From contig JBMFKS010000004.1 of the NCBI GenBank assembly GCA_049972045.1, positions 1 to 61,296 on the forward strand: a DNA stretch of 61,296 nucleotides, read 5' to 3'. This DNA is from Anaerolineae bacterium. GTDB lineage: Bacteria; Chloroflexota; Anaerolineae; B4-G1; DUEL01. Shown in pieces: positions 7,316-55,220 of this stretch; within the stretch, counting starts at the first letter, position 1, and every line of letters starts with the position of its first letter. Below the pieces are notes generated by a model that was given only the letters and a program-made list of their open reading frames with translations, had not been told where the DNA came from and searched no databases. The position numbers and the translations under genes were made by a program.

Positions 7316-7348
7316 GCGGATTCCGTGGTTTCGTGGTCCGCTTTGCGG

Positions 7349-7927
7349 TTAGGGGCGATGGGATTGCACCAGTGCCCACGCCGACGGGAGCGCCAGGACC
7401 GCCAGGGTGAGTTTGAGCAGGTCGCCCGGGATGAAGGGCCAGAGCCCCATTATCAGCGCCCGCTCCGGACCGACAAGGCAGGCCAGCCAGGGCAGGCCAA
7501 AGAGGTAAATCACCAGATTGCCCGCCAGCATGGCCAGCACGGCCGTGAGGACCCGCCGGTCCCAGCCGCGCTCGCAGAGCCACCCGGTCACGGCCGCTGC
7601 AGCCACAAACCCCACCAAGTATCCCCCCGTCGGTCCGAGGAGTCGGGCCAGGCCGCCGCTTCCCCCCGCGAAGACCGGCAACCCGGCAATGCCCTCCAGC
7701 AGGTACAGGCCGAGGGCCAGCGCTCCCCGGCGGCTTCCCAGCAGGGCGCCCACCAGCAGAACGCCGAATGTTTGCCCGGTGATCGGCACCGGCGTAAAGG
7801 GCAGTGGGATGGCTATCTGGGCCATCAGGCCGACCCATACACTTCCGCCACCGATCAACAGCGCGTCATAAACCAGTGTTCTGGTTCCGATCAGCGTGTC
7901 CACCAGTGTCCCGCTTCCTTTTTCCAT
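7349..7927 (-). CDS. bioY: biotin transporter BioY
   Basis: Contains PFTPVPITGQTFGVLLVGALLG, GGYLVGF and other BioY membrane protein motifs. Start MEKGSG at 7927 is preferred over 7963 because of the GGGAGGGG SD. Confidence 0.8.
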   Translation of the reverse strand: MEKGSGTLVDTLIGTRTLVYDALLIGGGSVWVGLMAQIAIPLPFTPVPITGQTFGVLLVGALLGSRRGALALGLYLLEGIAGLPVFAGGSGGLARLLGPTGGYLVGFVAAAAVTGWLCERGWDRRVLTAVLAMLAGNLVIYLFGLPWLACLVGPERALIMGLWPFIPGDLLKLTLAVLALPSAWALVQSHRP

Positions 7928-7967
7928 TGCCCCTCCCGTCCGACGAAATGCGCAGTACGCCATACGT

Positions 7968-9512
7968 CTACACCGGCATGTTCCCGTGCTTCCGCGCCGG
8001 GTGTCGGACTCGCTTGTCTCGCAGCATCTCCAGTCCCCGGATGAGCATATACCGGGTCTGGGAAGGACGAATCACTCCGTCCAGATACCCCCGCCCGGCG
8101 GCGACGTAGGGGTTGGCGAACCGGTCCCGGTATTCCCGGAGCAATTGCTGTCGCATTGCCTCCGGGTCCTCTGCCTCCGCCAGTTCCTTCCGGAAGACGA
8201 CGTTCACCGCCCCCTCCGGTCCCATCACCGCGATCTCGGCGGTGGGCCAGGCCAGGCAGAGGTCACCCCGCAGCGGTTTGGAACTCATCACAATGTACGC
8301 GCCGCCGTAGGCTTTGCGGGTGATGATGGAGAGTTTGGGGACGGTGGCCTCCGCGTAGGCGTAGATCATCTTCGCCCCGTGGCGGATGATCCCCCCGTGC
8401 TCCTGCGCGACGCCCGGCAGGAAGCCGGGGGTGTCGGCAAAGGTGACCAGGGGGATGTTGAAGGCGTCGCAGAAGCGGATGAACCGCGCGCCCTTGTCGG
8501 CGGCGTCTATATCCAGGGCGCCCGCCAGGACCGCCGGTTGCTGGGCGACGATGCCCACCGGATGTCCCCCCAGCCGCGCAAAGCCCACAATGAGGTGAGG
8601 GGCAAAACCGGCCTGGACCTCCAGGAACTCCCCGTCATCCACCACGCGCCGGATGACCTCGTCCATGTCGTAGGGCTTCATAGGGTCCTCCGGCACCAGC
8701 GTGTCCAGTTCCGGGTCGGCCCGGTCGAGCGGGTCGGTGGGCGGGATATAAGGCGGGTCCTCGGCGTTGTTAGAGGGCAAGTACGACAGGAGGCGGCGCA
8801 CCAGCGCCAGCGCGGCCGAGTCGTCCGGCGCGACGAAGTGGGCTACGCCGCTTTGGGTCAGGTGGACGCGCGCGCCGCCCAGGTCCTCCGGCGTCACCTC
8901 CTCGTGGGTCACCGCCCGAATGACGTCCGGGCCGGTGATGAACATCCGCGCCGTCTTCTCCACCATAATGACGAAGTCGGTCAGAGCGGGGGAGTAGACG
9001 GCGCCGCCGGCACAAGGGCCCAGAATGACCGAAATCTGGGGGACGACGCCCGAGGCCAGGACGTTGCGGTAGAAAATCTCGCCGTAGGCGACCAGCGCGT
9101 CTACCCCCTCCTGGATGCGCGCGCCGCCGGAGTCGTTGAGGCCGATGATGGGCGAGCCGTTCTCCAGCGCCAGGTCCAGCACCTTGCAAATTTTCCGCCC
9201 GTGGGCCTCGCCGACGGAGCCGCCCAGCACGGTAAAGTCCTGGGCGAAGACGTAGACCCGGCGGCCGTCTATCTCGCCCCAGCCGGTGACGACGCCGTCG
9301 CCCAGCGGACGCTCCCGGTCCAGGCCGAACTCCGTCGCCCGATGGGTGACGAAGGCATCCAGTTCCACGAAAGACCCGGGGTCCAGAAGGGCCTCCAGCC
9401 GCTCCCGCGCGGTCTTCTTGCCCTGGGCGTGCTGTTTCTGAACTCGCTCCGGCCCACCGCCTGCGCGGGCCGCGGTTTCCATTTCCTCCAGTCGTTGCAG
9501 GTCGGCGCGCAT
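7968..9512 (-). CDS. acyl-CoA carboxylase carboxyltransferase subunit (PccB / methylmalonyl-CoA carboxyltransferase 12S type)
   Basis: Start MRADLQRLEE at 9512 after GGAGGAAGC; 514 aa. Typical blocks are GKKTARERLEALLDPGSF, GGARIQEG and AYGGAYIVM. Confidence 0.9.
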   Translation of the reverse strand: MRADLQRLEEMETAARAGGGPERVQKQHAQGKKTARERLEALLDPGSFVELDAFVTHRATEFGLDRERPLGDGVVTGWGEIDGRRVYVFAQDFTVLGGSVGEAHGRKICKVLDLALENGSPIIGLNDSGGARIQEGVDALVAYGEIFYRNVLASGVVPQISVILGPCAGGAVYSPALTDFVIMVEKTARMFITGPDVIRAVTHEEVTPEDLGGARVHLTQSGVAHFVAPDDSAALALVRRLLSYLPSNNAEDPPYIPPTDPLDRADPELDTLVPEDPMKPYDMDEVIRRVVDDGEFLEVQAGFAPHLIVGFARLGGHPVGIVAQQPAVLAGALDIDAADKGARFIRFCDAFNIPLVTFADTPGFLPGVAQEHGGIIRHGAKMIYAYAEATVPKLSIITRKAYGGAYIVMSSKPLRGDLCLAWPTAEIAVMGPEGAVNVVFRKELAEAEDPEAMRQQLLREYRDRFANPYVAAGRGYLDGVIRPSQTRYMLIRGLEMLRDKRVRHPARKHGNMPV

Positions 9513-10685: not shown

Positions 10686-10913
10686 CGGGCCCGCCACGCC
10701 CTCGGGCCGAAGGCCCTCGGGGCCGAGGGCGTCGCCCCGCCACGCGGCGAGGTTGTCACTGCGAGCGCAGCGAAGCAGCCGCTCGCCCTCGGGCCGCGGG
10801 GCCCTCGGCCCAAGGCCTCGGCGCGAGCGCCTTCGGCGCGTGGCGCGGCGTGGCCGAAGGGGCTCGCCCCGAGGGGCTGCGCATTGTAGGGCAACTGCTC
10901 GCAGTTGCCCTAC
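10686..10913. repeat. composite intergenic repeat array (GC-rich family plus solo GTAGGGCAACTGC hairpin at 10886-10913)
   Basis: Near-identical blocks recur at 21052-21180 and 32222-32398. The hairpin abuts the fabF stop codon. Confidence 0.8.
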
Positions 10914-12213: not shown

Positions 12214-12468
12214 GGTAGTGGTTTGTCAACAGCACTTTTGTGGGTCTTTGCGCCCTCCAGTAGGGCAACTGCTCGCAGTTGCCCTACGCCTTGGGGCCTG
12301 CATGGGCCCCTGGCCGCGTCGGCAATTCGGACCCATATAAACTTGACTGACCAGTAGGTCGGGATTGCCCATCCGACCTCCTCGCTCTACCGAATTGCCG
12401 GCGAGAGGGGTTACCGAGTTTCTGACTTGCGGGAATGCGTCCCCGCGCCGGGTGTACTCGTAAGCAAA
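12214..12468 (-). repeat. full MITE-2 copy (12214-12358, reverse) followed by family G/F repeat modules (12359-12468)
   Basis: TIRs are GGTAGTGGTTTGTCAA and CTTGACTGACCAGTAGG, with a central hairpin GTAGGGCAACTGCTCGCAGTTGCCCTAC. Module F (about 85 bp) recurs reversed at 54856-54940. Confidence 0.85.
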
Positions 12469-21051: not shown

Positions 21052-21180
21052 CAACCCTTCGGGGCGAGCCTTATCGGCCCCGCCGCGCCACGCCTCGGCG
21101 CGTGGCGCGCCGAGGCCTTGGGCCGAGGGCCCCGCGGCCCGAGGGCGAGCGGCCTTCGGTCCGAGGGCGTGGCGGTTGCT
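21052..21180. repeat. GC-rich palindromic repeat array
   Basis: GCGCCACGCCTCGGCGCGTGGCGCGCCGAGGCCTTGGGCCGAGGGCC... recurs at 10790-10860 (reversed) and 32245-32330. Confidence 0.8.
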
Positions 21181-25470: not shown

Positions 25471-25553
25471 GCCCCGGTGGCGGAATAGGCATACGCAGCA
25501 GGTTGAGGGCCTGTGCCCGACAGGGCGTGGAGGTTCAAGTCCTCTCCGGGGCA
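25471..25553 (+). tRNA. tRNA-Leu (anticodon GAG), class II with long variable arm; CCA not encoded
   Basis: Acceptor GCCCCGG/CCGGGGC. Anticodon stem GCAGG/CCTGT with loop TTGAGGG, a 13-nt variable arm and a GTTCAAGTC T-loop. Promoter TTGACA (25433-25438), 16 nt, TATAAT (25455-25460). Confidence 0.85.
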
Positions 25554-27073: not shown

Positions 27074-27316
27074 GTCATTGCGAGCCGCCCGCAGGGCGGC
27101 GAAGCAATCTCGGTAGAGCGTCCTGGCGATTGCTTCGGGCGCTCCGCGCCCTCGCAATGACAGACGGGAGGGTAGTGGTTTGTCAAGTTTATGCTTATGG
27201 GTCCGAATTGCCGGCGCGGCCAGGGGCCCATGCAGGCCACAAGTAGGGCAACTGCTCACAGTTGCCCTACTGGAGGGCGCAAAGACCCACAAAAGTGCTG
27301 TTGACAAACCAGTAGG
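27074..27316 (+). repeat. GTCATTGCGAG-family hairpin (27074-27161) plus full MITE-2 copy (27171-27316)
   Basis: TIRs are GGTAGTGGTTTGTCAA and TTGACAAACCAGTAGG, with central hairpin GTAGGGCAACTGCTCACAGTTGCCCTAC. Confidence 0.88.
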
Positions 27317-28073
27317 CTGAGCAGTTACGATTAGTTGATGGTAGGTGGGTCAATCCGGTTGCTTCGCGGACCAGTCGCGTCGTCTCTTCTGCTTCGGCGC
27401 GCATGCGTTCGTTCCCGGCCGCCAGGATTTCCTCCACCAACCCTGGCCGGTCCTCATAGCAGGCCCGACGCTCGCGGATGGGCTCCAGGAAGCCGTTGAG
27501 CGCCGCTGCCAGCCGCTCCTTGACCTCCACATCGCCCACTTTGCCGCTTCTGTAGCGCGCCTTCAGGTCCTCCACCTCCTCTCTGTTGGGATTGAAGAAA
27601 TCGTGATAGATAAAAACGGGATTGCCCTCCACGCGTCCGGGCACATCGGCCCGGATCCGCTGAGGGTCGGTGACCATGCGGCGAACCTTCTCCCGCACCG
27701 TTTCGGCGTCGTCGGACAGGTAGATAACGTTGCCCAGGGACTTGCTGGCTTTGGCCTGCCCGTCTGTTCCCACCAGTACCTCGCCGACCAGCGCTTCTGG
27801 TTCGGGGAAGACCTCTCCGTAGAGATAGTTGAATCGTCGGGCGACCTCGCGGGCAACCTCCACGTGGGCCTCGTTATCCCGGGCCACCGGCACCAGATGG
27901 GCGCGGGGGAGAAGGATGTCGGCAGCCTGCAGCACGTGCAGGTCGGCGATGATGAAAAAGCAATCGTACTCATCTTGCAACCGCACCCGGTTTGCCCGGC
28001 TGCCCACATAGTGGCCCAGGTGCAGTCTGCCTGTGGGACGGTCGCCGGTCAGGATGCGCTTTCGGGATTTCAT
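27267..28073 (-). CDS. trpS: tryptophanyl-tRNA synthetase homolog, internally deleted and degenerate (possible pseudogene or neofunctionalised paralog)
   Basis: 268 aa. HLGH is present. IADLH joins directly to VLQAADILL, so about 80 aa of canonical TrpRS are absent. GEDQ is ARDN and KMSKS is KASKS. The last 16 codons and the stop lie inside MITE-2. Confidence 0.75.
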
Positions 28074-28089
28074 TGCTCTCTCCTCCTGG

Positions 28090-28494
28090 AAACAAAAAAC
28101 GCCCGCCCCTTTGCCAGGACGGGCGTTTTTCCCGTGGTGCCACCCCGCTGAGGGGCCTTTCCCCGGGAACAAAAACGCGCCGGTGACGGCGCGTTGGGGG
28201 GAAAAGCCAGCCTCACTCTTTCGCGGGTACGGCGCCGACCGGATACGGTCGGGTCCATACCCTCAGCCCGGATAACGGTGGCGACTCCGGCCCGGACTAC
28301 TACCTGACCGGCCTGTGGGCGGGTCAGGGTTCGGCGGGCGACTCCCAGGCCCATTCGGCATCGGCGCTGGTATCGGGCTTCCAGCCTCCGGCCCGACTCT
28401 CTGGAACCCCGCTACGATGCCTACTCTTCCTGATCTTCGTCTTTGGGGTATCGGTTGTTGGATATCTTATACCACAACACTGAGAAACTGTCAA
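28090..28494 (-). promoter_or_regulatory. promoter plus T-box riboswitch leader (Trp specifier UGG) of the trpS homolog
   Basis: Minus strand TTGACA (28494-28489), 17 nt, TATAAG (28471-28466). Contains GAAGAGUAGG and CCAGAGAG. The specifier is GAA-UGG-G (28353-28351) and the T-box core is GGGGUGGCACCACGGG (28146-28131). Terminator plus U6 at about 28126-28093. Confidence 0.8.
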
Positions 28495-28566: not shown

Positions 28567-29724
28567 CTACTCCCCCATCAACCTCCGCAGCAGAGCCATC
28601 TTGCCCTCATGGAGAGTCTCCCAGTCATCCAGGAGCACCCCACCCGTGTCGCCAGAGTTGGGGTTCAGGGCCCAGTAGAACCAGATGCGAATGCCCTTCG
28701 CCTGCAGATAATCCGCGAAAGCGTCCTGCCAGACCCGATCGGCGCCCTCGTAGCGCCCGCCGAACTCGCCGATGCCCAGGGGATACTTCCCCGCCATCCA
28801 GCCGAAGTGGGCATCCCAGATGGCCGGCATGTTGGACGGGAAATCCGGCGCGTCAAAATAGGGCTGACGGTAGACGCTGGGGCCGTAGGCATGGGGAAGG
28901 TAGAGAATGCGTTCCGAGCGTTCGGGAGCAATCTCCACATCCCGGTCGGCGAGGTTCTCCCCCCAGAAGGCCGGCCAGCCGCCCGCATCCGACGCGTTGC
29001 CCACACCCTCCACCACCACCAGGACGGAGGGGTTGACCGAAAGGACAGCCTCCGCCCCTTCCCGCGCCAACCCCTTCCACTCCCTCCAGGTCAGCGCGTA
29101 GGGCTCGTTGCAAAGGTCAACGCCGAAGATGTTGGGGAATTCCCGGGAGAGTTCGGCCATCCGGCGCAGGTCCGCCAGCCAGTCCGCTTGGGTGTACCCG
29201 TCCCCGAAGGGCCGGCCCGGAAGGTCGCCGCCGATCCGGTCGGGGGAGTATGTATGGAAATCCAGAAGGACGTAGAGGCCTGCCTTCTGGGCCTCACCCA
29301 GGAAATACCGGAGCCCTTCGTACGCGTCGGCGGGGTACCCCGCGCTGCGGGCCCAGGAAGGAGTAGGACGGCCAGGAGTCAGGACCTGGGGGGAAAGGGG
29401 CAGCCGGATCGCGGTGAACCCCAGACCCCGCATCTGGGCCAGAAAGTCCGCCACCGTCCGGCCGGTCCAGAGGCCGTGAGGGGCCCGGTCGGGAGTCTCC
29501 AGGCCGAACCAGTTGATGCCGTAGAGGGGCACCGGTTCGTCGCCCCGGAAGACGCCCTGAGGCGTGGCCCGATAGGCAGAGGTGGGAGCGGATACGGTCG
29601 GAGAAGGCCTCGCCGCCCCCGGGCCAGCGCAGCCGGCCAGCAAGACCAGCAGAAAGCAGAGCAGAAGCCACCCACTTCCGGTCGGGGCCGGAGTGCACAG
29701 GGGTGGGAAAGAGAACTGAGACAT
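28567..29724 (-). CDS. glycoside hydrolase family 5 (cellulase-like) lipoprotein
   Basis: Start MSQFSFPP..LLAGCAG (lipobox) at 29724. GH5 motifs are GINWFGLE, LCNEPY (acid/base) and GIGEFGG (nucleophile). Confidence 0.85.
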   Translation of the reverse strand: MSQFSFPPLCTPAPTGSGWLLLCFLLVLLAGCAGPGAARPSPTVSAPTSAYRATPQGVFRGDEPVPLYGINWFGLETPDRAPHGLWTGRTVADFLAQMRGLGFTAIRLPLSPQVLTPGRPTPSWARSAGYPADAYEGLRYFLGEAQKAGLYVLLDFHTYSPDRIGGDLPGRPFGDGYTQADWLADLRRMAELSREFPNIFGVDLCNEPYALTWREWKGLAREGAEAVLSVNPSVLVVVEGVGNASDAGGWPAFWGENLADRDVEIAPERSERILYLPHAYGPSVYRQPYFDAPDFPSNMPAIWDAHFGWMAGKYPLGIGEFGGRYEGADRVWQDAFADYLQAKGIRIWFYWALNPNSGDTGGVLLDDWETLHEGKMALLRRLMGE

Positions 29725-29788
29725 ACGGGCCTCCGGAAATGAAAACCGAAACCACGAAGGAGACGAAGATCCTTTTGTGCCTCGGATC

Positions 29789-30148
29789 CTATCCCAGAAT
29801 CCGAGACAGTGTCGCGTAGACGTCCTGGAGCGGGATTCCCCGCTCCCGGGCAATGCGGGCGCAGTCCTCATACTCCGGCGACGCGGCAACCCTTCGCCCG
29901 TCCAGCCACTTCTCCTTCACCCGCACCGTCCCCCATTCCGTCTCCACCGATACCTCCCGCCGGTCGGCGACAACGCGCGCCACGGGCCGCACCCGCACGC
30001 CCAGCGTCGGGGTCTCCCGCAGGATGAGACCCGCCAGAGCATCGGCCTGATCCGGGCGGGCCAGGGGGAAGTGATCGCGCACCCGCACCTGACGCAATCC
30101 CCACTCCCGGCGCAGGACCTCCTCGGCGGCATCCACCCGCGCCTCCCG
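29789..30148 (-). pseudogene. larE-fragment / larC C-terminal remnant (5'-truncated scar)
   Basis: The open frame starts immediately after the nuclease stop. AEEVLRREWGLRQVRVRDHFPLAR resembles the LarE C-region, fused to the LarC C-terminus ETPTLGVRVRPV...VRVKEK...SPEYEDCARIARERGIPLQDVY. There is no N-terminal catalytic part. Confidence 0.55.
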
Positions 30149-30574
30149 TCACAACGTGCGGGTATTGGCCGCAGCGATGAAGGCTTCCAGGGTTACAATT
30201 TTGACCAGATCGCTATAACGTAGATATTTACTCAATCCCCCACCCACAAAGAAGTCACGCAAACGCCACCCTGGCCCGCCAAGGACCAGATAGGCTTTGT
30301 GATAACCGCCTCCCGAGGACAAAATCGCCTCCGCCAAACACATCGCTTCAAAGGGGATCTTTTGTTCAGCAGTTCCAGAGACCTGCTGCCATTTCAAAGA
30401 GATCAGGTATCTCTTCCCCTCCGAGTCCTCGGCCACCACATCCACAATGTGCTTGCCTCCCCCCAAACGCTCGCCAACATGGACGCGTTTCTTGTAGCGA
30501 TACCCCCCATGTTCCAGCGCAGGGAGAATCATATTTTCCAGCACTCTTCCGGTTGAAGTGTCCCGCGGATTCAT
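30149..30574 (-). CDS. small PD-(D/E)XK-type nuclease (candidate restriction endonuclease)
   Basis: 141 aa with E in VLENMI, D in HIVDVV and SLK in YLISLKWQQVSGTAEQK. ATGA overlap with the upstream methyltransferase. G+C is visibly lower than in the flanks. Confidence 0.55.
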   Translation of the reverse strand: MNPRDTSTGRVLENMILPALEHGGYRYKKRVHVGERLGGGKHIVDVVAEDSEGKRYLISLKWQQVSGTAEQKIPFEAMCLAEAILSSGGGYHKAYLVLGGPGWRLRDFFVGGGLSKYLRYSDLVKIVTLEAFIAAANTRTL

Positions 30575-32145
30575 ACGGATTCCCTCACATAGATAAGAAG
30601 ATATTTATGAATAACTGCCAGATGGTTCCCCCCGGAAACAGGGGGAGTCTCTTCCGGCACGACGATGACGATCTCCTTCAAAGCAAGATGCCGCTCCCGT
30701 CCGAGATCTTCCCAAAGCAACAAAGCGGCAGGCACGAGATCGCCCCTGGGAGAGCGAAAATCCTTCGCTTCTATCACCAGGTATCCGTCGGGAGGGAGCC
30801 GAAGAATCGCCTGCCGGAGAAGATCTCCGATGCAGCGCCTGCAACCGGCGAAGATCGCTTCATCCATTTCCTCCGGCAGCCGAATCCACCACAGGTTTGC
30901 CGGCCCAACCGACAAAGGAGCCGCTTCTGAAATCCCTCCACCGCCCGTCAGATGGATCTCAACCAGTTCGCCCGCACCCTCAGCAAACCTTTGGAAGAGA
31001 TTCCGTCTAACTTCTTCTTCCATCCGCGCCAACGGGAACACCCAAACCGTCATCGCTTCCAGGGGTTCCTCTCTCGCGGGCCAAACAGCCCCCTGGACCG
31101 TCCGGCAGGACATAGAGGCTTCCCAGAGGGAAAGTTGCTCCTGCACTCCCGATCCAGCCGGTTTCTCAAAAACAGGGAGGTACTCGTGTGCCAGCAGCAA
31201 AAAGTTATATTGAACACTCCGGCTGTACCAGAAACCCGTTGCCCGGCAGTTGTGTTGTCGTTTGATGATCAATTCCTTCAGGCGAAAGCCGACATCTAAG
31301 AACACCCGGATCACCATAAAGCCAACCGGCACAACCCGCTTAGACTGGCGGGCATCTCCCACGAGGATCGCGCACTTCCCGCCGGGCTTCAAGACCCGGA
31401 GGCTTTCCCGGGCCACCTTCCGCATCTCTTGCAAAAACTCTGGTACGGTAAGGGCAGACAGGTCACCGGGAAGCCCGCTACTATATCGGATGATCCTCGC
31501 GTAAGGGGGATGGGCACAGATCAGATCAACGCTGTTATCGGAAATCCCGGAAAGATCCCGCGCATCTCCCACTTCCACCATCGGCTCGTAGATCTCTTCT
31601 CCCGTGATCGGAGCAGGAGGGGAGAAACCCAAATTCCGCCGGGTGAGGGAGACCGCGGCAGGATTGATATCCCGGGCTATGCAGCGGCGGCCCAATAACT
31701 TGGCTTCTACCGCGGTTGTTCCGCCTCCCACAAAATAGTCCAGGATCAGATCACCGGGCCGGGAATACCGCAGGATGATATTTCGCGGAATATAAGGCGA
31801 CCAATTCCCCCGGTAACGCCCATCGTGTGTGGCCCAACGCCCCCGCTCCTTGAAACTCCAGACCGTAGTGGTTTCCAGGCGAAAGTCCGATGGCTGCCAG
31901 CGTCGGATTCGCGCGGCAGGGCGGAGATCGCCGATGTTCGCCCCGCATGCCCGGGTAATCATCCGCTGAAGGGCACCAAAAGAGAGACCGTAGCGGCGAC
32001 CAATCTCTACGTCCGAGAGCCCCTTCTCTTTGTCAGATATGACCGCGCGAGAGAGTTCTTCCTCGCCGTGGACGGTTAGAAGATGGTCGCGTATCTTTCC
32101 CTCCGGCGACTGCCCACACAGAGGGCATTGGATGGGCTCTTTCAT
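30571..32145 (-). CDS. DNA methyltransferase (N6/N4 type) with N-terminal Zn-ribbon/HTH and a duplicated, degenerate C-terminal MTase-like domain
   Basis: Start MKEPIQCPLCG at 32145. Motif I is ILDYFVGGGTTAVEAKLLGRRCIARDIN and motif IV is ICAHPPYA. A second copy from about aa 375 (TVWVFP.., EIHLTGGGG, WWIRLPEE, LRLPPDGYLVIEAKD) lacks both catalytic motifs. Confidence 0.7.
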   Translation of the reverse strand: MKEPIQCPLCGQSPEGKIRDHLLTVHGEEELSRAVISDKEKGLSDVEIGRRYGLSFGALQRMITRACGANIGDLRPAARIRRWQPSDFRLETTTVWSFKERGRWATHDGRYRGNWSPYIPRNIILRYSRPGDLILDYFVGGGTTAVEAKLLGRRCIARDINPAAVSLTRRNLGFSPPAPITGEEIYEPMVEVGDARDLSGISDNSVDLICAHPPYARIIRYSSGLPGDLSALTVPEFLQEMRKVARESLRVLKPGGKCAILVGDARQSKRVVPVGFMVIRVFLDVGFRLKELIIKRQHNCRATGFWYSRSVQYNFLLLAHEYLPVFEKPAGSGVQEQLSLWEASMSCRTVQGAVWPAREEPLEAMTVWVFPLARMEEEVRRNLFQRFAEGAGELVEIHLTGGGGISEAAPLSVGPANLWWIRLPEEMDEAIFAGCRRCIGDLLRQAILRLPPDGYLVIEAKDFRSPRGDLVPAALLLWEDLGRERHLALKEIVIVVPEETPPVSGGNHLAVIHKYLLIYVRESV

Positions 32146-32221
32146 TTCCAACTTCCGTCCTCCCCCCACCACCGGAATCAAGAAGCAACAGGGCACTTCT
32201 GGCCGGTATGCCTGGGGTCAA

Positions 32222-32398
32222 TGATTCTTGGCGCTTGCAGTGACAACCTCGCCGCGCCACGCGCCGAAGGCGCTCGCGCCGAGGCCTTGGGCCGAGGGCC
32301 CTTCGGCCCGAGGGCGTGGCGGGGCGAGCCCCATGGGGGCTCAAAAAGCCCGAAGGGCCACGCCCCAAAGGGCTTCGCATTATGAGCCCGGACGTTTA
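32222..32398. repeat. GC-rich palindromic repeat array
   Basis: Same family as 21052-21180 and 10686-10885. Confidence 0.8.
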
Positions 32399-32436
32399 CG
32401 TCCAAGCAATTGGCGCTGGCCGAAACAAACGCAATC

Positions 32437-32700
32437 TTATCGCTTCCGGTAAATATCTCGCCGATGACCGATGGCATGGATGATGATCACACGCTCCTGA
32501 TCCAGCACCTCGTAGATGATGCGATAATCGCCAACACGAAGTTTATAAAACCCTTTCAGGTCACCCTTGAGTGCTTCAGGCCTAATGGAGTTCAGATTGG
32601 CGGCCAACTAGCGGACACGCTCAACCACTCGCCTGGCCGTGGGTTTGTCCAGTTGCTCCAATTCTCTACAGGCCGATTCCAGAATGCGAACGCGATACAT
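32437..32700 (-). pseudogene. RelE/ParE-family toxin gene with in-frame TAG at codon 31
   Basis: MYRVRILESACRELEQLDKPTARRVVERVR*LAANLNSIRPEALKGDLKGFYKLRVGDYRIIYEVLDQERVIIIHAIGHRRDIYRKR, with TAG at 32610-32608. No intact antitoxin lies upstream. Confidence 0.7.
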
Positions 32701-33026
32701 AAAGGTCCTCCATCATAAAATGTTCTACTAAAGTTATAACGCGCACTCTGGGAGGACCCTATCCACTTGAGGCTTTGGGGCGTAATTCTTTGTCCGTTCC
32801 ACTTTGTTGCCAAAAATGGGCAATTCATGGGATTTTTCATCCACTTAGCCGCCCAAAGCAGTCAGATTTAGGGATGACTCTTTGTAAAAAGCGATTTATG
32901 CACCAAAGCCCACCAAAGCCTCCACTTGAAGTACCACTTTTGGGTGATTCATCCCCTTATCGACACAGACCACCCTTCCTCCAGCGGGGAGAACAGGCCG
33001 GGCACTTCCATCGGCTTTTGGCATTT

Positions 33027-33245
33027 TTATTCTAACCCCAGCCGGGCGACAACTTCCTCCAACAATTCCCCCCGTTCGCCAGCAGCAACCGCCTTTCTCT
33101 GACGTAACAGCCTCTCCCGCACAGATTTGCGGAATTGCAACCCCTCGTCCGGATCGCCGAGGAGTTCCAGAAGTTTTTCCTCAACGATTCTCTCTATCAT
33201 CTCCCGGAGTTCGCTCCTGGTCATTTGAGCAACGGTAACAGCCAT
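33027..33245 (-). CDS. small helical antitoxin-like protein, family not identified
   Basis: 72 aa: MAVTVAQMTRSELREMIERIVEEKLLELLGDPDEGLQFRKSVRERLLRQRKAVAAGERGELLEEVVARLGLE. It lies in the low-G+C stretch with no intact partner downstream. Confidence 0.4.
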   Translation of the reverse strand: MAVTVAQMTRSELREMIERIVEEKLLELLGDPDEGLQFRKSVRERLLRQRKAVAAGERGELLEEVVARLGLE

Positions 33246-33318
33246 TGTGCACCTCCCAGCACCGACCTAAACAATCTCCAGAGTCCAGGACGCTATATCA
33301 GCAGCCGGTCACCCTCCG

Positions 33319-35004
33319 CTACGAAGCCCACCACCGGAAATCCACATCCGGGAAGACCCGATCCAGTTCCCAGAGTTCGTCGGCCAGGTCCCGGTCGGGG
33401 CGGCCGGATTCCACGCTGGCCGCCAGTTTCTCAAACCGTTCCACGTGGGCGGTGAAGCGCTGGATGGCGTACTCGCGCGCTTGCCCGGTGGTAACCAGGA
33501 AGGGCCAGTCGGAGGCCTCCAGAAGCAACAGTTCCCGGGCCGCCTGGTTGAGGACGAAGGCCTCACCGGCGGTCGCGTGTTCCGCCTTCTCGCGCGCCAG
33601 CCGGCCCATCCGCGCCTCGCACTCGTGGATGGGCGTCCACATCCAGTGGGTCTCCGGGTTGTCCCAGGTCCAGTGGCCGCCGCCCAGGCCCCAGGAACTC
33701 TCCGGAATCGCCAGGACTTCCTCCGGCGGATGGGCCTCCAGGTACCCGCTGGCCGTCGTCAGCGCCACTCGCTCAGAGCGGGCCAGGAGCCGTAGCACCT
33801 CCCGGATCCAGTCCACCCCCTCAAACCACCAGTGGCCGAAGAGTTCGGTATCGTAGTTGGAGGCAATGAGGCCGAACTGCCCGGTCTCCGCGTGGTACCG
33901 CTCCAGCAGGTCGGTCACCAGCCAGGCGAAGTGGCGGGCATGCTCCCCGACCTTGTACTGCGCCCAGTCGGGATGGTACCAGTCCTTAAAAGCCAAATCT
34001 ACCCGCGCGCCGGTGACCCGCCAGTATTGAAGGCCGGAGCGGTGGTCTTTTTTGTGGAACTCCCGGTAATCAAAGTCGCCGGGATAGCCCCAGTCGGCGG
34101 ACCAGACCTGCATGCCGGTGCGGTTGTTGCGGCCGATGGCAGCCACGCCGGAATGCTCGCTCACCACCCCGGGGGTGGTATTGACCACGTAGTAGGGCCG
34201 GTAGGTGCTGCGGGGCTTCTCCGGCACCGCCAGTTTCTCCAGGGGGAGGACGTAACGGCGGACGATGGCGCCGTAGGGGCCGATGGCCTCCCCCGCCGCC
34301 TTCCCCACCGGACGTCCGCCCTCAATGGCATGGGTCTCCACGAAGAAACAGCCCAGCCCTTCGTCGGCCAGCAACGTCTCTATCCCGGCGCGGACTGTAC
34401 CGTCGGGGGCGACGTAGGCCGGGCGGTAGGCACATTCGGGGAGCCAGATGGCCCGGGGCGCCCGCCTGAAGTGGCGGCGGTAGGAGGCGATCCCGGCCTT
34501 CAGTTGGCCGCGAATCGCCGCATCGGTGCCCAGGAGGGGGAGGTAGCCGTGGGTGGCGGCGGAGGTGATGATCTCTATCACCCCCGCGTCCTGGAGCCGC
34601 CGGAAACCGCCCAGGAGGTCCCGCCCGTACCGGTGGCGGAAAGCGTCCAGGAGGCCCGAGTACCAGTCCCGGTAAAAAGAGGCCAGGTACGCCGCGTGGG
34701 GGTTCCCTTCCTGCTGGAAGCGGGGGACGTCCGCCTCGGCGGCCCGGATTCGCTCCTGGACGTAGGCCTCAAAGTGGTCCTGGACCGTGGGGTCCGCCAG
34801 TTGCTCGCAGAGGATGGGGGTCAGCCCCAGGGTGAGGTGGACCGGCAGCCCCTCCTCGTAGAGGTCGGTGAGAGCGTTGAGGAGGGGGACGTAGGTTTCA
34901 GCCATGGCCTCGTAAATCCACTCCTCGCCGTGGGGCCAGCGGCCGGCCATCCGGCAGTAGGGCAGATGGCTATGAAGGACAAAGGTGAACGCGCCGATGG
35001 GCAT
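33319..35004 (-). CDS. GH57-family 1,4-alpha-glucan branching enzyme
   Basis: 561 aa beginning MPIGAFTFVLHSHLPYCRMAGRWPHGEEWIYEAMAETYVPLL, a GH57/DUF1957 architecture. Confidence 0.85.
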   Translation of the reverse strand: MPIGAFTFVLHSHLPYCRMAGRWPHGEEWIYEAMAETYVPLLNALTDLYEEGLPVHLTLGLTPILCEQLADPTVQDHFEAYVQERIRAAEADVPRFQQEGNPHAAYLASFYRDWYSGLLDAFRHRYGRDLLGGFRRLQDAGVIEIITSAATHGYLPLLGTDAAIRGQLKAGIASYRRHFRRAPRAIWLPECAYRPAYVAPDGTVRAGIETLLADEGLGCFFVETHAIEGGRPVGKAAGEAIGPYGAIVRRYVLPLEKLAVPEKPRSTYRPYYVVNTTPGVVSEHSGVAAIGRNNRTGMQVWSADWGYPGDFDYREFHKKDHRSGLQYWRVTGARVDLAFKDWYHPDWAQYKVGEHARHFAWLVTDLLERYHAETGQFGLIASNYDTELFGHWWFEGVDWIREVLRLLARSERVALTTASGYLEAHPPEEVLAIPESSWGLGGGHWTWDNPETHWMWTPIHECEARMGRLAREKAEHATAGEAFVLNQAARELLLLEASDWPFLVTTGQAREYAIQRFTAHVERFEKLAASVESGRPDRDLADELWELDRVFPDVDFRWWAS

Positions 35005-36766: not shown

Positions 36767-38608
36767 TTACGCAAATTCTACCGGTCGGAGACGGGTCTCG
36801 GCGTCCAGGAACTGGGCCAGTTGTTCCCGGAAGAAAAGTTGAATGGTCCGGGTCGGGCCATGCCGGTGTTTGGCGACGATGATGTCGGCGATATGCTGTT
36901 TCTCCGTCTCCGGTTTGTACATCTCCTCGCGGTAGATGAACATGACCACGTCGGCGTCTTGCTCCAGGCTGTTGTGGACAATAATGTCTCCGGCCACGAA
37001 ATTGTGATGTCCGGGAACTTCCAGGTCAAAGACCTCTTCTTCGCCGGCTCCCTCTATGGAAGCAACCCGATCCCAATACACGTCGCTCTGGCTCAGGCGA
37101 ATCAACTCTTCGCTCTGGACAATCTGTCCAACCGGCAGCGCGCGTTCGCGGCTCAGGTTGGTTTTGGATAGAGCAGCGATGGGCTCGCCGGCCTTCAGTT
37201 GGTCCAATCGTTTCCATCCCTCTATGGTGCGAAAACGGTGGTTGGCCGTGGCCCGAATTTCCCGGCCCAACCGGGTCCGGAGGCGGTAGACGGGTGCTAT
37301 CCCAACCCGCCAGGCCTTACGGGCTTCTACGGGTTCCAATTTCCATGTCTGCTCGTTCAGAGCCATCACCCGAACAGGGTTGCCTTCACGGGCCAGTTGA
37401 CCGATGGGTATCCGCCGACCGTCGGCTAACTGAACGAGGGTCTCACCCGTCAGACAGCCGCTTTCGCGCAGGTCGGCCAGCACCGGCCGTTTATCCGTCC
37501 GTTGCTCCACCGCGCGGGAGAGTTGGGAGACCGCCAGGAGCGGCACGTCCAGTTCCCGCGCCAGACTCTTGAGCATGCGGGAGATATAGGAGACCTCCTG
37601 GACCCGGTTCTCCACCCGCACGTCGCTGGTCATCAGTTGCAGGTAGTCCACCACGATCAGGTCCAGGCCGTACTCGGCGTGAATCCGCCGCGCTTTGGTG
37701 CGCAGTTGCAGGGCGGAGATGGCGGGCGTGTCGTCAATAAAAATGGGGAGTTCGGAGAGCACTCCGGTGGCCTGGACCAGGAGGGGCCATTCCTCCTCCC
37801 GCAGTTGTCCCAGCCGGAGCCGCTGGGCGTCAATCCCTGTCTCGGCGGAGACCAGCCGCTGCACCACCTGCTCGGCGGACATCTCCAGGCTGAAAATGGC
37901 CACATGTTTGCCCATCCGGGCCGCGTTGCGGGCGATGGACAGGCAGAAGGACGTCTTCCCCACGCCGGGCCGGGCCGCAACGATGATCAGGTCCGACTTC
38001 TGCAATCCCCCCAGCAACTTGTCCAGGTCTATGAAGCCGGTGGGCACCCCCAGCGGTTCCCCCTGATGGGTGTAGAGATACTCAATCCGGTCGTAGAAGG
38101 GCCGGACGACCTCCTGGATGGGCACCAGGTCGCGGGTGATGCGTCGCTGGGAGATAGCAAAAAGGGACTGTTCTGCCCGGTCCAGGACCTCGCCGATTTC
38201 CTGAGCCTCCTGGTAGGCCAGTTGAGCGATGTCGCTGGCCGCGCTGATGAGGCGGCGGCGGATGGCGGCCTCTTCCACAATCCGCCCATAGGCCTCCACG
38301 TGGATGGCCGTGGGAACGGTATCTATCAGCCGGGCCAGGTAGGCAACCCCCCCCACTTCCTCCAGAATCCCCCGCGCTTCCAGTTCGTTGCGCAGGGTCA
38401 CGAGGTCCACCGGCTCCCGGCGGTCGTGGAGGGCCAGGATGGCCTCGTAAATCCAGCCGTTTTTCTGGATGTAGAAGTCCTCGGGGCGGAGAAACGAAGC
38501 AACCCGGTAGAGCGCGTCCGGGTCAATCAGCAGGGAGCCCAGGACCGCTTCCTCCGCCTCTACGTCGTGCGGGATGGTCTTCTCCGGAGCAATCAAGCCG
38601 ATTTTCAC
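36767..38608 (-). CDS. dnaB: replicative DNA helicase DnaB (intein-containing precursor)
   Basis: 613 aa with Walker A GVGKTS, RESG / SLEQDADVV flanking the intein, and the DnaB N-domain. Confidence 0.93.
   Translation of the reverse strand: MKIGLIAPEKTIPHDVEAEEAVLGSLLIDPDALYRVASFLRPEDFYIQKNGWIYEAILALHDRREPVDLVTLRNELEARGILEEVGGVAYLARLIDTVPTAIHVEAYGRIVEEAAIRRRLISAASDIAQLAYQEAQEIGEVLDRAEQSLFAISQRRITRDLVPIQEVVRPFYDRIEYLYTHQGEPLGVPTGFIDLDKLLGGLQKSDLIIVAARPGVGKTSFCLSIARNAARMGKHVAIFSLEMSAEQVVQRLVSAETGIDAQRLRLGQLREEEWPLLVQATGVLSELPIFIDDTPAISALQLRTKARRIHAEYGLDLIVVDYLQLMTSDVRVENRVQEVSYISRMLKSLARELDVPLLAVSQLSRAVEQRTDKRPVLADLRESGCLTGETLVQLADGRRIPIGQLAREGNPVRVMALNEQTWKLEPVEARKAWRVGIAPVYRLRTRLGREIRATANHRFRTIEGWKRLDQLKAGEPIAALSKTNLSRERALPVGQIVQSEELIRLSQSDVYWDRVASIEGAGEEEVFDLEVPGHHNFVAGDIIVHNSLEQDADVVMFIYREEMYKPETEKQHIADIIVAKHRHGPTRTIQLFFREQLAQFLDAETRLRPVEFA
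36971..37456 (-). mobile_element. DnaB mini-intein (162 aa, no homing-endonuclease domain)
   Basis: Covers aa 385-546: CLTGETLVQLADGRRIP...ATANHRF...VFDLEVPGHHNFVAGDIIVHN followed by S. It is inserted in the conserved LRESG|S(I/L)EQDAD site, as in the Rhodothermus and Synechocystis DnaB inteins. Confidence 0.88.
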
Positions 38609-41348: not shown

Positions 41349-41375
41349 CCAACGTCACCCGAAATTCCCTTCAGT

Positions 41376-41520
41376 CCTACTGGTCAGTCCAGTTTATACT
41401 TATGGGTCCGAATGGCCGACGCGGCCAGAGGCCTATGCAGGCCACCAGTAGGGCAACTGCGAGCAGTTGCCCTACTGGAGGGCGCAAAGACCCTAAAAGT
41501 GCTGTTGACAAACCACTACC
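41376..41520 (+). repeat. full MITE-2 copy
   Basis: CCTACTGGTCAGTCCAG...GTAGGGCAACTGCGAGCAGTTGCCCTAC...GCTGTTGACAAACCACTACC. It ends 22 nt before the next start codon. Confidence 0.88.
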
Positions 41521-47394: not shown

Positions 47395-48711
47395 ATGCCC
47401 ACGGGATGGAGTCGGATCTACGAGAGCAAAGTGACGACGGCGGAAGAGGCCGTTCAGGTCATCAAACACGGCGACCGCATTTTTCTGACCGGCAACTGCA
47501 GCGTCCCCCAGGTCCTGATGAAGGCACTGGTGGAGCGGGCTCGCGAACTGGAGAATGTAGAAATCTGCCATGCCTTGACCATTGGGGCCAGCGACTACGT
47601 CGCGCCGGAGATGGAAGGGCACATTCGTGCCAACGCGCTCTTCATCGGCCCCAACGTCCGCAAGGCCGTGCAGGAGGGACGGGCCGATTTCACCCCCGTC
47701 CTCCTCTCCGAATTCACCCTCCTTTTCCAGAAAGGCATCCTGCCGGTGGATGTCGCCTTCGTCCACCTCTCCCCGCCCGACGAGCACGGCTTCTGCTCCT
47801 ACGGCATTGAGACCGGCTTGACCAAGACGCCGGCCGAATCGGCGCGGATCATCATCGCCGAAGTCAACCCCAACATGCCTCGCTGCTTAGGCGACAGTTT
47901 CATCCACATCAGTCGGATAGATTCCATCGTGCCGGTAGATTACCCACTGATGGAACTGCCAATGGGTAGCGGCGAGCCGTCGGAGGTGGTCCTGCGCATT
48001 GCCCAGTACATCGCCGAATTGGTCCCCGATGGCGCGACGATGCAGATGGGCATCGGCGAGATTCCGGACGCGGTGTTGCGCTTCCTCCGCCACAAAAAGG
48101 ACCTGGGCGTCCACACCGAACTGTTCTCCGATGGGGTGATTGACCTGGTGGAGGCCGGGGTCATCACCAACGCCCGCAAAACCCTCCATCCGGGCAAGAT
48201 CATCGCCGGATTCATGCTGGGGACGCGGCGTCTCTACGAGTGGGCCCACGATAACCCCATCATTGAACTGCGCCGCACCGAGTACGTCAACGACCCCTTC
48301 GTCATCGCCCAGAACTACCGGCAGGTGGCCATCAACTCGGCCATAGAGGTGGACCTGACGGGGCAGGTCTGCGCCGATTCCATCGGCCCCAAACTCTACA
48401 GCGGCGTCGGCGGGCAACTGGACTTCATCTACGGCGCGTCCCGCTCCGAGGGCGGGGTGCCCATCATCGCCCTCCCCAGCACGACGACGCTGAAGGACGG
48501 GACGGTGGTCAGCCGGATCGTCCCGATGCTCAAGCCGGGCGCGGGGGTCGTCACCACCCGCTACCATGTCCACTACGTGGTCACCGAATACGGGGTGGCG
48601 GACCTCTACGGCAAGACCATCCGGCAGCGGGCCCAGGCCCTCATTCGCATCGCCCATCCGGACTTCCGGGAGGAACTGACCCGGGCGGCGAAAGAGTTGA
48701 ACTATCTGTAG
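47395..48711 (+). CDS. acetyl-CoA hydrolase/transferase family protein (4-hydroxybutyrate / succinyl-CoA:acetate CoA-transferase-like)
   Basis: 438 aa with family blocks GIGEIPDAV, SGVGGQLDF and VTEYGVADLYGK. The stop codon TAG (48709-48711) lies inside the MITE-2 TIR. Confidence 0.85.
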   Translation: MPTGWSRIYESKVTTAEEAVQVIKHGDRIFLTGNCSVPQVLMKALVERARELENVEICHALTIGASDYVAPEMEGHIRANALFIGPNVRKAVQEGRADFTPVLLSEFTLLFQKGILPVDVAFVHLSPPDEHGFCSYGIETGLTKTPAESARIIIAEVNPNMPRCLGDSFIHISRIDSIVPVDYPLMELPMGSGEPSEVVLRIAQYIAELVPDGATMQMGIGEIPDAVLRFLRHKKDLGVHTELFSDGVIDLVEAGVITNARKTLHPGKIIAGFMLGTRRLYEWAHDNPIIELRRTEYVNDPFVIAQNYRQVAINSAIEVDLTGQVCADSIGPKLYSGVGGQLDFIYGASRSEGGVPIIALPSTTTLKDGTVVSRIVPMLKPGAGVVTTRYHVHYVVTEYGVADLYGKTIRQRAQALIRIAHPDFREELTRAAKELNYL

Positions 48712-48852
48712 TGGTCAGTCAAGTTTATGCTTATGGGTCCGAATTGCCGACGCGGCCATGGGCCCATACAGGCCATAAGTAGGGCAACTGCGAGCAGTTG
48801 CCCTACTGGAGGGCGCAAAGACCCAAAAAAGTGCTGGTGACAAACCAGTAGG
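48708..48852 (+). repeat. full MITE-2 copy
   Basis: GTAGTGGTCAGTCAAG...GTAGGGCAACTGCGAGCAGTTGCCCTAC...GCTGGTGACAAACCAGTAGG. Confidence 0.88.
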
Positions 48853-51781: not shown

Positions 51782-51853
51782 ATAGGGCAACTGCTCGCAG
51801 TTGCCTACTGGAGGGCGCAAAGACCCCCAAAAGTGCTGTTGACAAACCACTAA
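51782..51853 (+). repeat. partial MITE-2 (hairpin plus right arm only)
   Basis: ATAGGGCAACTGCTCGCAGTTGCCTAC then TGGAGGGCGCAAAGACC..GCTGTTGACAAACCACTAAC. It ends 16 nt before the prfA ATG. Confidence 0.85.
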
Positions 51854-51869
51854 CCCCTAACCGTTCACA

Positions 51870-54855: not shown

Positions 54856-55220
54856 GCATTGCGAGTACGCCAGGCGCGGGGCGCATTCCCGCAACTCAGA
54901 AACTCGGTCACCCCTCCCGCCGGCAATTCGGTAGAGGGGGTAGCTCGACATTGTTAAATTCGCTGTCATAGCCCAACAAAGGATGTCATTGCGAGCGGAG
55001 CGAAGCAATCTCCCGCCTTCAAATGCAAGTAACGGTGGAGATTGCTTCGTCGCTCCGCTCCTCGCAATGACACTGGGCCTGGAATCGAACAATGTCAAGG
55101 TAGTGGTCAGTCAAGTTTATCCTTATGGGTCCGAATGGCCGACGCGGCCAGGGGCCCATGCAGGCCACAAGGCAAAAAGCCGGCGTGGGGCAACTGTGAA
55201 CAGTTGCCCTACTGGAGGGA
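54856..55220. repeat. nested repeat array: family F (54856-54940), full 157-bp MITE-D (54944-55100), MITE-2 lacking its right arm (55099-55220)
   Basis: MITE-D has TIRs CTCGACATTGTTAAATTC and GAATCGAACAATGTCAAGG and an internal long hairpin GTCATTGCGAGCGGAGCGAAGCAATCTCC / GGAGATTGCTTCG..CTCGCAATGAC. Confidence 0.88.

Follow-up and report, generated by a model that had tools for sequence, protein, structure and literature searches.

The DNA considered here is a 61-kb stretch (61,296 nucleotides, hereafter the window) of a Thermoflexus-like Chloroflexota genome from a hot spring. Its subject is a candidate defence island of ~3.2 kb at window positions 30144-33326, in which a small nuclease gene and a DNA methyltransferase gene lie next to a toxin-antitoxin pair. 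Every gene of the island, together with the remnant of a lar locus that borders it, is carried on the minus strand. Loci from other assemblies are referred to by their labels (L001, L018 and so on). The features, with the evidence by which each was recognized, are the following.

29789-30143, minus strand: fused larE'-larC' remnant (Pfam, NCBIfam, BLAST to L018)
30144-30148, no strand: left junction (alignment; same junction in L093)
30149-30574, minus strand: 141-aa PD-(D/E)XK nuclease (Pfam PF20472, PDDEXK_11; AlphaFold2)
30571-32145, minus strand: 524-aa DNA methyltransferase, counted from the ATG (PADLOC MTase_II PDLC03376; Pfam N6_N4_Mtase)
32215-32395, core 32247-32323, no strand: copy of a GC-rich, hairpin-rich dispersed repeat (self-comparison of the window)
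32437-32700, minus strand: RelE/ParE-family toxin gene with an in-frame TAG (Pfam ParE_toxin; NCBIfam RelE_StbE)
32701-33026, no strand: 326-bp spacer between antitoxin and toxin (comparison with canonical pairs)
33027-33245, minus strand: 72-aa antitoxin (homologues paired with ParE_toxin elsewhere)
33246-33326, no strand: right junction (BLAST end points in 16 relatives)

The guanine plus cytosine (G+C) content of 30144-33310 is 0.560, compared with 0.652 for the remainder of the window. Other windows of 3.17 kb have a mean of 0.650 (standard deviation 0.0215, minimum 0.604), which places the island ~4 standard deviations low. At third codon positions (GC3), the island genes range from 0.58 to 0.63, compared with 0.74-0.87 in the GH5, GH57, cupin, lipA and trpS genes. 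The original prediction, made from the letters of this stretch, had proposed a low-G+C island by eye; both measures bear it out, and a composition like that of the flanks, which would have told against the proposal, is clearly not what is seen.

The protein encoded at 30149-30574 has a sole Pfam match at E <= 0.01, to PF20472 (PDDEXK_11; E = 3.9e-14). It is unusually small, as had been remarked, and although it could not be placed by eye in a named restriction-enzyme family, it does belong to a named one. No match was found for it in NCBIfam, in PADLOC, in a plasmid collection or, by sequence, in the PDB (best E = 1.7), and a PHROGs search returned one family of unknown function only. Its AlphaFold2 model, with a predicted local distance difference test score (pLDDT) of 94.7, has the PD-(D/E)XK fold with an alpha-beta-beta-beta-alpha-beta core, where the lack of a nuclease fold would have spoken against the proposed function. 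Foldseek finds AF1548, BstEII, Can2, NucS/EndoMS and EcoO109I as its best structural relatives, at TM-scores of 0.4-0.63 that indicate likeness at fold level only. The family comprises more than 2800 homologues, nearly all of ~141 aa and 65-81% identical, and 514 clusters at 50% identity; members occur across bacteria, archaea and cyanophages. The E..D..SLK pattern originally pointed out is present as E13, D45 and S59-L-K61. Within the family, D45 is conserved at 90%, S59 at 76%, K61 at 80% (with arginine in a further 10%) and Q63 at 90%, and position 70 (E70) is acidic in 100%. When 22 close nucleases are aligned, 50 columns are invariant.

The PF20472 match, the confident model and D45, K61 and E70 thus show a stand-alone protein with the fold and the catalytic residues of an endonuclease, and we infer a putative type II restriction endonuclease, which is probably a homodimer acting on a short palindrome. 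Its minimal alpha-beta-beta-beta-alpha-beta core is shared with PvuII and with Cfr10I/NgoMIV. In the latter enzymes, a D...SxK motif is completed by a second acid from the following helix, as E70 would do in the window nuclease. Unlike enzymes of the PvuII and Cfr10I type, the window nuclease has no sequence match to solved structures and resembles them in fold only; PvuII, with 157 aa, is also larger. By sequence, the nuclease does not fall into the DpnII/MboI family. Literature searches on PF20472/PDDEXK_11, the HPPY motif, cyanophage GATC endonucleases and Thermoflexus restriction-modification returned nothing relevant, and no characterized member of PF20472 was found.

The ATGA-coupled arrangement described in the original prediction, a 524-aa methyltransferase followed by the 141-aa nuclease, is confirmed by the overlap of the two genes at 30571-30574. 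The core of the methyltransferase (aa 79-328) matches PADLOC MTase_II PDLC03376 (E = 1.8e-88) and also Pfam N6_N4_Mtase. The beta-class enzyme TTHA0409 (PDB 2zie) aligns to it as two segments in exchanged order. With motif I (FVGGGTT) ahead of motif IV (HPPY), the core at aa ~80-330 is of a permuted beta-class N6/N4 type, and HPPY is invariant in an alignment of 40 homologues. The N-terminal aa 1-75 hold a C2H2-type zinc finger (CxxC...HxxxxH) and a helix-turn-helix-like segment; of the zinc-finger pattern only H21 and H26 reach 90% in the same 40 sequences, the cysteine columns being lowered by N-terminally truncated rows. Residues ~355-524 (nt 30574-31083) align to the protein's own core (hhalign probability 96.9%, E = 2e-10, 157 columns), with the lead-in ETTTVW repeated and the cofactor and catalytic motifs missing, which points to an active domain with a dead copy of its core behind it. 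The AlphaFold2 model is of moderate quality (pLDDT 76.5), and the C-terminal domain is well defined in it. A 71-aa gene preceding the short methyltransferase of L004 was considered as a detached zinc-finger/helix-turn-helix head and set aside, since it showed no similarity.

Like the beta-class enzymes TTHA0409, M.RsrI, M.PvuII and CcrM, the window enzyme combines FxGxG as cofactor motif with xPPY as catalytic motif, and both its halves match Pfam N6_N4_Mtase and TTHA0409. It differs from them in its reversed motif order, HPPY, the extra head and the degenerate second core. Permuted derivatives of beta-class methyltransferases were reportedly described by Bujnicki in 2002.

The restriction-modification reading of the original prediction is supported by the linkage of nuclease and methyltransferase, which is kept in many unrelated contexts. 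A DNA methyltransferase adjoins the nuclease in all seven contexts that were looked up individually. The long permuted methyltransferase stands beside it in L001, L009, L105 and L107. The pair is flanked by clpB and a Mg-chelatase gene in the first of these and by the genes of V-ATPase subunits B and D in the second; in the third it precedes rtcB, and in the fourth it is flanked by tpiA and an AMMECR1 gene. The closest nuclease homologue, 80% identical, is found between clpB and the Mg-chelatase gene, and other genomes hold the two-gene cassette between housekeeping genes with ~10-140 bp to spare. In L004 the partner is a 330-aa version of the permuted methyltransferase, and in L006-L008 it is a Dam/DpnM-like enzyme, the best solved relative of the L006 partner being DpnM. 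In the cyanophage S-RIM50 (L092, KU594605.1, 37941-39262), a Dam gene (232 bits to E. coli Dam) directly precedes a nuclease homologue of 37% identity. In the S-RIM50 record and those of 38 other Synechococcus phages, all T4-like, Dam is followed by a 144-aa homologue annotated as hypothetical; the two may form a phage-borne restriction-modification pair.

A wider survey covered 80 metagenome loci with nucleases of 60-81% identity, in which methyltransferases were sought by tblastn. A methyltransferase lies beside the nuclease in 68 of them. Dam-family enzymes are adjacent in 56/80, as a rule encoded on the strand of the nuclease and 5-45 bp ahead of it, and the permuted type is found in 7/80. 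Seventeen loci gave no tblastn match. In 12 of them the upstream flank was too short; of the five that were informative, four (L146, L159, L160, L188) carry a canonical beta-class enzyme, as does the short-flank locus L143, which brings this type to at least 5 loci. The 12 loci left without a methyltransferase comprise 11 with too little flank and L116, an informative locus in which none was found beside the nuclease. One locus (L161) is a three-gene cassette consisting of a 261-aa methyltransferase made up of the permuted core only (with AHPPY and 57% identity to the window core), a Dam-family enzyme (279 bits on TIGR00571) and the nuclease, and in L162, L158 and L174 both a Dam-family and an N6/N4 methyltransferase were detected near the nuclease by tblastn. 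The two genes are thus adjacent, with a linkage conserved across genomes, and the pattern is that of a putative selfish, mobile type II restriction-modification unit.

With a slight preference over all other sites together, GATC would be the most likely target of the window enzyme, because Dam-family partners dominate and keep the Dam residues. These partners score 187-279 bits on TIGR00571, and in alignment they retain K9, N120, L122, R124 and P134 of E. coli Dam, residues which we take to contact GATC. The known systems DpnII, MboI and LlaDCHI offer a parallel: they are compact, with a small nuclease linked to a Dam-like (alpha, D12) and/or a beta-class adenine methyltransferase, as is the case here. 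Their three-gene methyltransferase-methyltransferase-restriction (M-M-R) form is likewise seen in L161, and the predicted target is the same. The window nuclease differs from DpnII in being half the size (DpnII-type nucleases have ~280-290 aa) and in belonging to PF20472 and not to the DpnII family, and the window methyltransferase is neither DpnM-like nor DpnA-like.

Several observations weigh against GATC. The window methyltransferase is itself not Dam-like: it has no MethyltransfD12 or TIGR00571 match and no detectable similarity to Dam, and it reaches DpnA only at E = 0.18. The argument for GATC therefore runs through the shared nuclease (~60-72% identity to Dam-linked homologues) and the three-gene cassettes only. 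The L160 partner, the one of these beta-class enzymes that was compared with solved structures, is closest to CcrM, at 193 bits compared with 117 for DpnA, and the partners in both L160 and L188 score best on the CcrM NCBIfam model. GATC is only twofold depleted in the window, and equally so in the relatives' loci that lack the cassette, and it is frequent within the island, with 25 sites. Inference of the target from tetranucleotide avoidance failed to discriminate. Over the whole window, CTAG occurs twice where 85 are expected, TCGA 9 times (152 expected) and AGCT 7 times (115 expected), and GATC and CATG are halved; the same pattern in the relatives L014-L018 and L024 marks it as lineage-wide and not tied to the island.

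It is accordingly possible, though distinctly less probable than GATC, that the system is a real restriction-modification system with another target, be it GANTC or some other short site, and that PF20472 holds several specificities. Some of the partners are closest to CcrM, so the nuclease family may cover more than one target (GANTC or mixed specificities). The four or five nuclease-linked enzymes of canonical beta class, together with the missing Dam similarity of the window methyltransferase, speak for such a target, and D12-class enzymes with targets other than GATC exist. However, the CcrM-like partners reach 235-243 bits where the cut-off for true CcrM is 830, and known DpnII-type GATC systems themselves combine alpha (Dam-like) and beta-class methyltransferases. 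The prevalence of Dam-family partners with their GATC-contact residues and the invariant columns of the close nucleases also argue against it.

The restriction-modification reading has itself to be weighed against a different function for both proteins, with the 141-aa protein a MutH- or Vsr-like repair or housekeeping nuclease and the 524-aa protein an orphan or RNA methyltransferase. For restriction enzymes, 65-81% identity between phyla would be exceptionally strong conservation, the nuclease is missing from the PADLOC models, and Foldseek of the whole methyltransferase model ranks the RNA methyltransferases Trm11 and RsmC first; one source labels a homologue 'TRM11 family'. Motif IV is also HPPY, where D/N/SPPY is usual, although motif I is present. 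We attribute the Trm11/RsmC ranking to the permuted motif order, from which it is expected, and not to an RNA substrate; the core matches a Pfam DNA methylase family, the type II profile and TTHA0409. Moreover, the cassette is patchy in occurrence, of foreign composition in this genome and found inside unrelated operons such as that of the V-ATPase subunits, at least four unrelated kinds of methyltransferase have been swapped round one nuclease, and a phage carries a copy. A repair or housekeeping role is thus unlikely.

To the left of the island, the lar remnant consists of ~93 nt of inner larE (30051-30143) fused, in the same reading frame, with the final ~254 nt of larC (29813-30066). In the relative L018, intact larE (5875-6711), intact larC (7333-8610), GH5 and GH57 follow in series; by BLAST, window 30143-30051 corresponds to L018 6456-6548, an internal piece of larE, and window 30066-29813 to L018 8333-8586, the 3' end of larC. 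The remnant covers positions 294-375 of the 375 in Pfam Ni_insertion and 50-118 of the 118 in NCBIfam LarC2, so that ~29 aa of LarE and the last ~69 LarC2 profile positions are retained, and neither a full-length LarE (TIGR00268) nor a full-length LarC (LarC1 plus LarC2) is encoded. At both ends the ~1.8-kb deletion is bounded by a direct repeat of ~17 nt, CCCTGGCCCG(T/C)C(T/C)GGA, which is present in both intact L018 genes, and the meeting of the two pieces at this repeat points to loss of ~1.8 kb of larE-larC through recombination between short direct repeats. Since larE-larC has additionally been shortened in this way, the remnant is non-functional and this lar copy is dead. The GH5 cellulase lies next to it: its longest open reading frame (28567-29889, 440 aa, TTG start) overlaps the remnant by ~100 nt. 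The GH5 of the relative has 377 aa, and an ATG at ~29724 in the window is preceded by GGAGG, so the true start is probably there and the overlap does not exist.

The left edge of the island is as sharp as originally described. The nuclease stop codon occupies 30149-30151 and homology to the intact larE of the relative begins at 30143, so that 5 nt at most separate the stop from the first larE-homologous base, and the remnant continues in the nuclease reading frame. The proposed insertion into a lar locus holds for this flank but not for the right one, which is the end of a GH57 branching-enzyme gene (stop at 33319). Matches of the GH57 protein, up to 94% identical, lie in Thermoflexus-like Anaerolineae/Thermoflexia genomes. 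Nucleotide homology to 16 relatives spans lipA, the cupin gene and GH57 and then ends in the last GH57 codons, with BLAST end points at window 33306-33328; the C-terminus reads ...RWWAS* in the window and ...RWWG* in the relatives. The DNA that follows GH57 differs among relatives, being glgA in L017 and L018, and the end of GH57 and mid-larE are not adjacent in the island's orientation in any of them. As only the left flank is lar and the right flank is the GH57 end, the island appears to occupy a rearrangement junction (last GH57 codons/mid-larE) and not to be a simple insertion. Relatives with 87-94% GH57 identity lack the arrangement, which speaks against its being conserved in all relatives together with an intact larE-larC. 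The suggested comparison for an empty site thus gave the absence of the arrangement, but no empty site could be demonstrated. In L102-L104 (GH57 90.7% identical), an antitoxin of 88% identity follows GH57, and next come a 101-aa gene and an AbiEii/DUF2204-type nucleotidyltransferase, which replace ParE and the restriction-modification pair at the same position. The site after GH57 is, by these comparisons, a likely variable defence spot.

At the GH57 side of the island stand the toxin and antitoxin genes. The toxin belongs to the ParE/RelE fold family by its matches to Pfam ParE_toxin (E = 5.9e-11) and, above cut-off, to NCBIfam RelE_StbE. The 72-aa antitoxin has no match in Pfam, NCBIfam or PADLOC, and its family has more than 1150 homologues. 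In L099-L101, an antitoxin homologue of 79% identity shares 1 nt with the gene of an 88-aa ParE_toxin, the latter having 64% identity to the window toxin, and such overlapping pairs suggest that the two window genes are one cognate pair split by 326 bp. The canonical copies of this family resemble ParDE and RelBE systems in that the gene of a small antitoxin lies upstream of the toxin gene and overlaps it; the window differs in the antitoxin family without a Pfam, NCBIfam or PADLOC model, in the split and in a nonsense polymorphism of the toxin. The intervening 326 bp (G+C 0.475, AT-richer) supply GGAGG and ATG for the toxin. They are not repeated elsewhere in the window and have no match in Pfam, NCBIfam or Rfam and no significant toxin-like match, in agreement with the ~330 bp of uncodable DNA originally noted, and a promoter-like site in them is within chance expectation. 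A 42-aa open reading frame after the antitoxin was tried as a toxin relic and rejected (E = 1.6, not significant).

The in-frame TAG at 32608-32610, which the original prediction had correctly seen to interrupt the toxin gene, is codon 31. It is found in the window, L093 and L095, and L091, L094 and L096 have TGG (Trp) and an intact 87-aa toxin; it is therefore a G-to-A polymorphism (TGG to TAG), a null allele in part of the population. The antitoxin gene, called an orphan, is real but is the predicted partner of this toxin, and the two decayed toxin-antitoxin genes become one split pair with a polymorphic stop. The TGG-to-TAG change (32608-32611) also creates one of the only two CTAG sites of the window, the other being at 4586.

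Between the toxin-antitoxin and restriction-modification modules lies the GC-rich stretch that had been taken for a repeat array. No tandem array is present: over 67 nt its core (32247-32323) shares 97% identity with 10784-10850, and a related sequence stands at 21078-21175; the copies in the window are 32247-32323, 10690-10850 and 21078-21175. A 24-nt core, GCCGAGGCCTTGGGCCGAGGGCCC, is identical in all three (0 expected) and occurs, among the fetched loci, only in same-species assemblies. The stretch has a fold z-score of -2.4 and no Rfam match, and it is a single copy of a dispersed host-genome repeat that separates the two modules.

Six other assemblies of the same species span the island wholly or partly at ~99-99.9% identity, and the internal gene order is common to 5-6 independent assemblies; several of the sister contigs break at the GC-rich stretch. 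An independent assembly (L093, GCA_049970195.1) crosses the left junction and has the same sequence down to 30011. Because six other assemblies cover the island and L093 crosses its left junction, it is not an assembly artefact. Left of 30011 (29800-30011, in the lar remnant), L093 is ~12% divergent from the window, and contigs L091 and L094 both terminate at 30136, 13 nt beyond the nuclease stop; the left flank therefore appears to vary among co-occurring strains, or the left edge to be a branching point of the assembly graph. Within the nuclease gene, L091 differs from the window at 24-26 positions in 139 nt (30371-30509; L091 11643-11781), out of 38-47 differences in total between these near-identical strains. 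Most are synonymous and four amino acids are changed. The tract looks like a recombination or gene-conversion patch from another allele of the family, under purifying selection. That the region was never acquired, and is either an assembly chimera, as the contig ends at 30136 and the divergence of L093 might suggest, or an old resident stretch drifted to low G+C, is highly improbable, as L093 crosses the junction, the independent assemblies share the internal order, GC3 is ~0.2 off all neighbours and the relatives lack the genes at this site.

Taken together, 30144-33326 is in all likelihood a horizontally acquired, mosaic defence island made up of a restriction-modification system and a split toxin-antitoxin pair. 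A foreign origin is indicated by the low G+C and GC3, the absence from 16 relatives, the different cargo in L102-L104 and the unrelated context of the closest nuclease. Some findings fit such an island less well: no integrase, transposase, tRNA or terminal repeat marking it was found, and no empty site can be defined since every relative is rearranged here. All functions named here, cleavage, methylation and the target among them, are predictions from sequence, modelled structures and gene neighbourhood. There is no tRNA gene beside the island, the closest being at 25471. Promoter and terminator scans gave matches no better than expected from shuffled sequence, and an Rfam scan of the island gave a single sub-threshold chance match only.

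In the mechanism proposed here, the methyltransferase would mark the host copies of a short target, most likely at the adenine of GATC, and the 141-aa nuclease, presumably as a homodimer, would cut unmarked copies on incoming DNA. The two would be translationally coupled through ATGA, with the methyltransferase made first. Its zinc-finger and helix-turn-helix head could bind DNA, perhaps for autoregulation, and the degenerate C-terminal copy could take the place that a second subunit has in the usual beta-class dimer. The two-gene cassette would move as a bare unit, and at this locus the 326-bp insertion would have uncoupled the antitoxin and toxin genes. A broader proposal, put forward tentatively and held at somewhat less than even confidence, is that PF20472 comprises the smallest known type II restriction endonucleases (~141 aa), which would cut GATC and be swapped among at least four unrelated types of adenine methyltransferase. 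The window partner would then be a circularly permuted pseudo-dimer that preserves the tandem-duplication intermediate proposed for methyltransferase permutation, and the cassette would spread by insertion almost exactly at gene boundaries, without a recombinase of its own.

Elsewhere in the window, a second family of dispersed repeats of ~145 bp was noticed by comparison of a sister contig with the window, with 80-90% identity between copies (12214-12358, 27173-27314, 48709-48850, 55101-55219, 2397-2482, 51783-51861 and ~41375-41520). One copy overlaps the 3' end of a tryptophanyl-tRNA synthetase-like (trpS-like) open reading frame (27267-28172, minus strand), which matches its Pfam family in two stretches; by eye ~70 residues are missing between the ADLH and QAADIL segments, as might be expected of a shortened paralog or of a pseudogene. 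The DnaB helicase gene (36767-38608, minus strand) contains a mini-intein, seen as an Intein_splicing match among the called genes of L091 and L093. Window 36970-37452 has no counterpart in the relatives L017 and L024, suggesting that only some lineages carry the intein.

The island is of an ordinary kind, and knowledge of how restriction-modification and toxin-antitoxin systems work is unchanged by it. It records a variable defence site after GH57, the loss of a lar locus and ongoing erosion, seen in the toxin null allele and the nuclease recombination patch. The points of interest lie in the tiny conserved nuclease family, the exchange of methyltransferase partners around it and the pseudo-dimeric permuted methyltransferase. 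Because neither PADLOC nor NCBIfam recognizes the nuclease, and the methyltransferase taken by itself would pass for an orphan, defence finders probably undercount systems of this widespread type. The link between PF20472 and Dam-family or other adenine methyltransferases, found in most of the loci surveyed, gives REBASE-type curation a concrete prediction, namely cleavage of GATC that would be blocked by N6-methyladenine. The methyltransferase, in carrying a fossil second copy of its fold, bears on the origin of permuted methyltransferases, and a putative sequence-specific nuclease of 141 aa asks how little protein suffices to read DNA.

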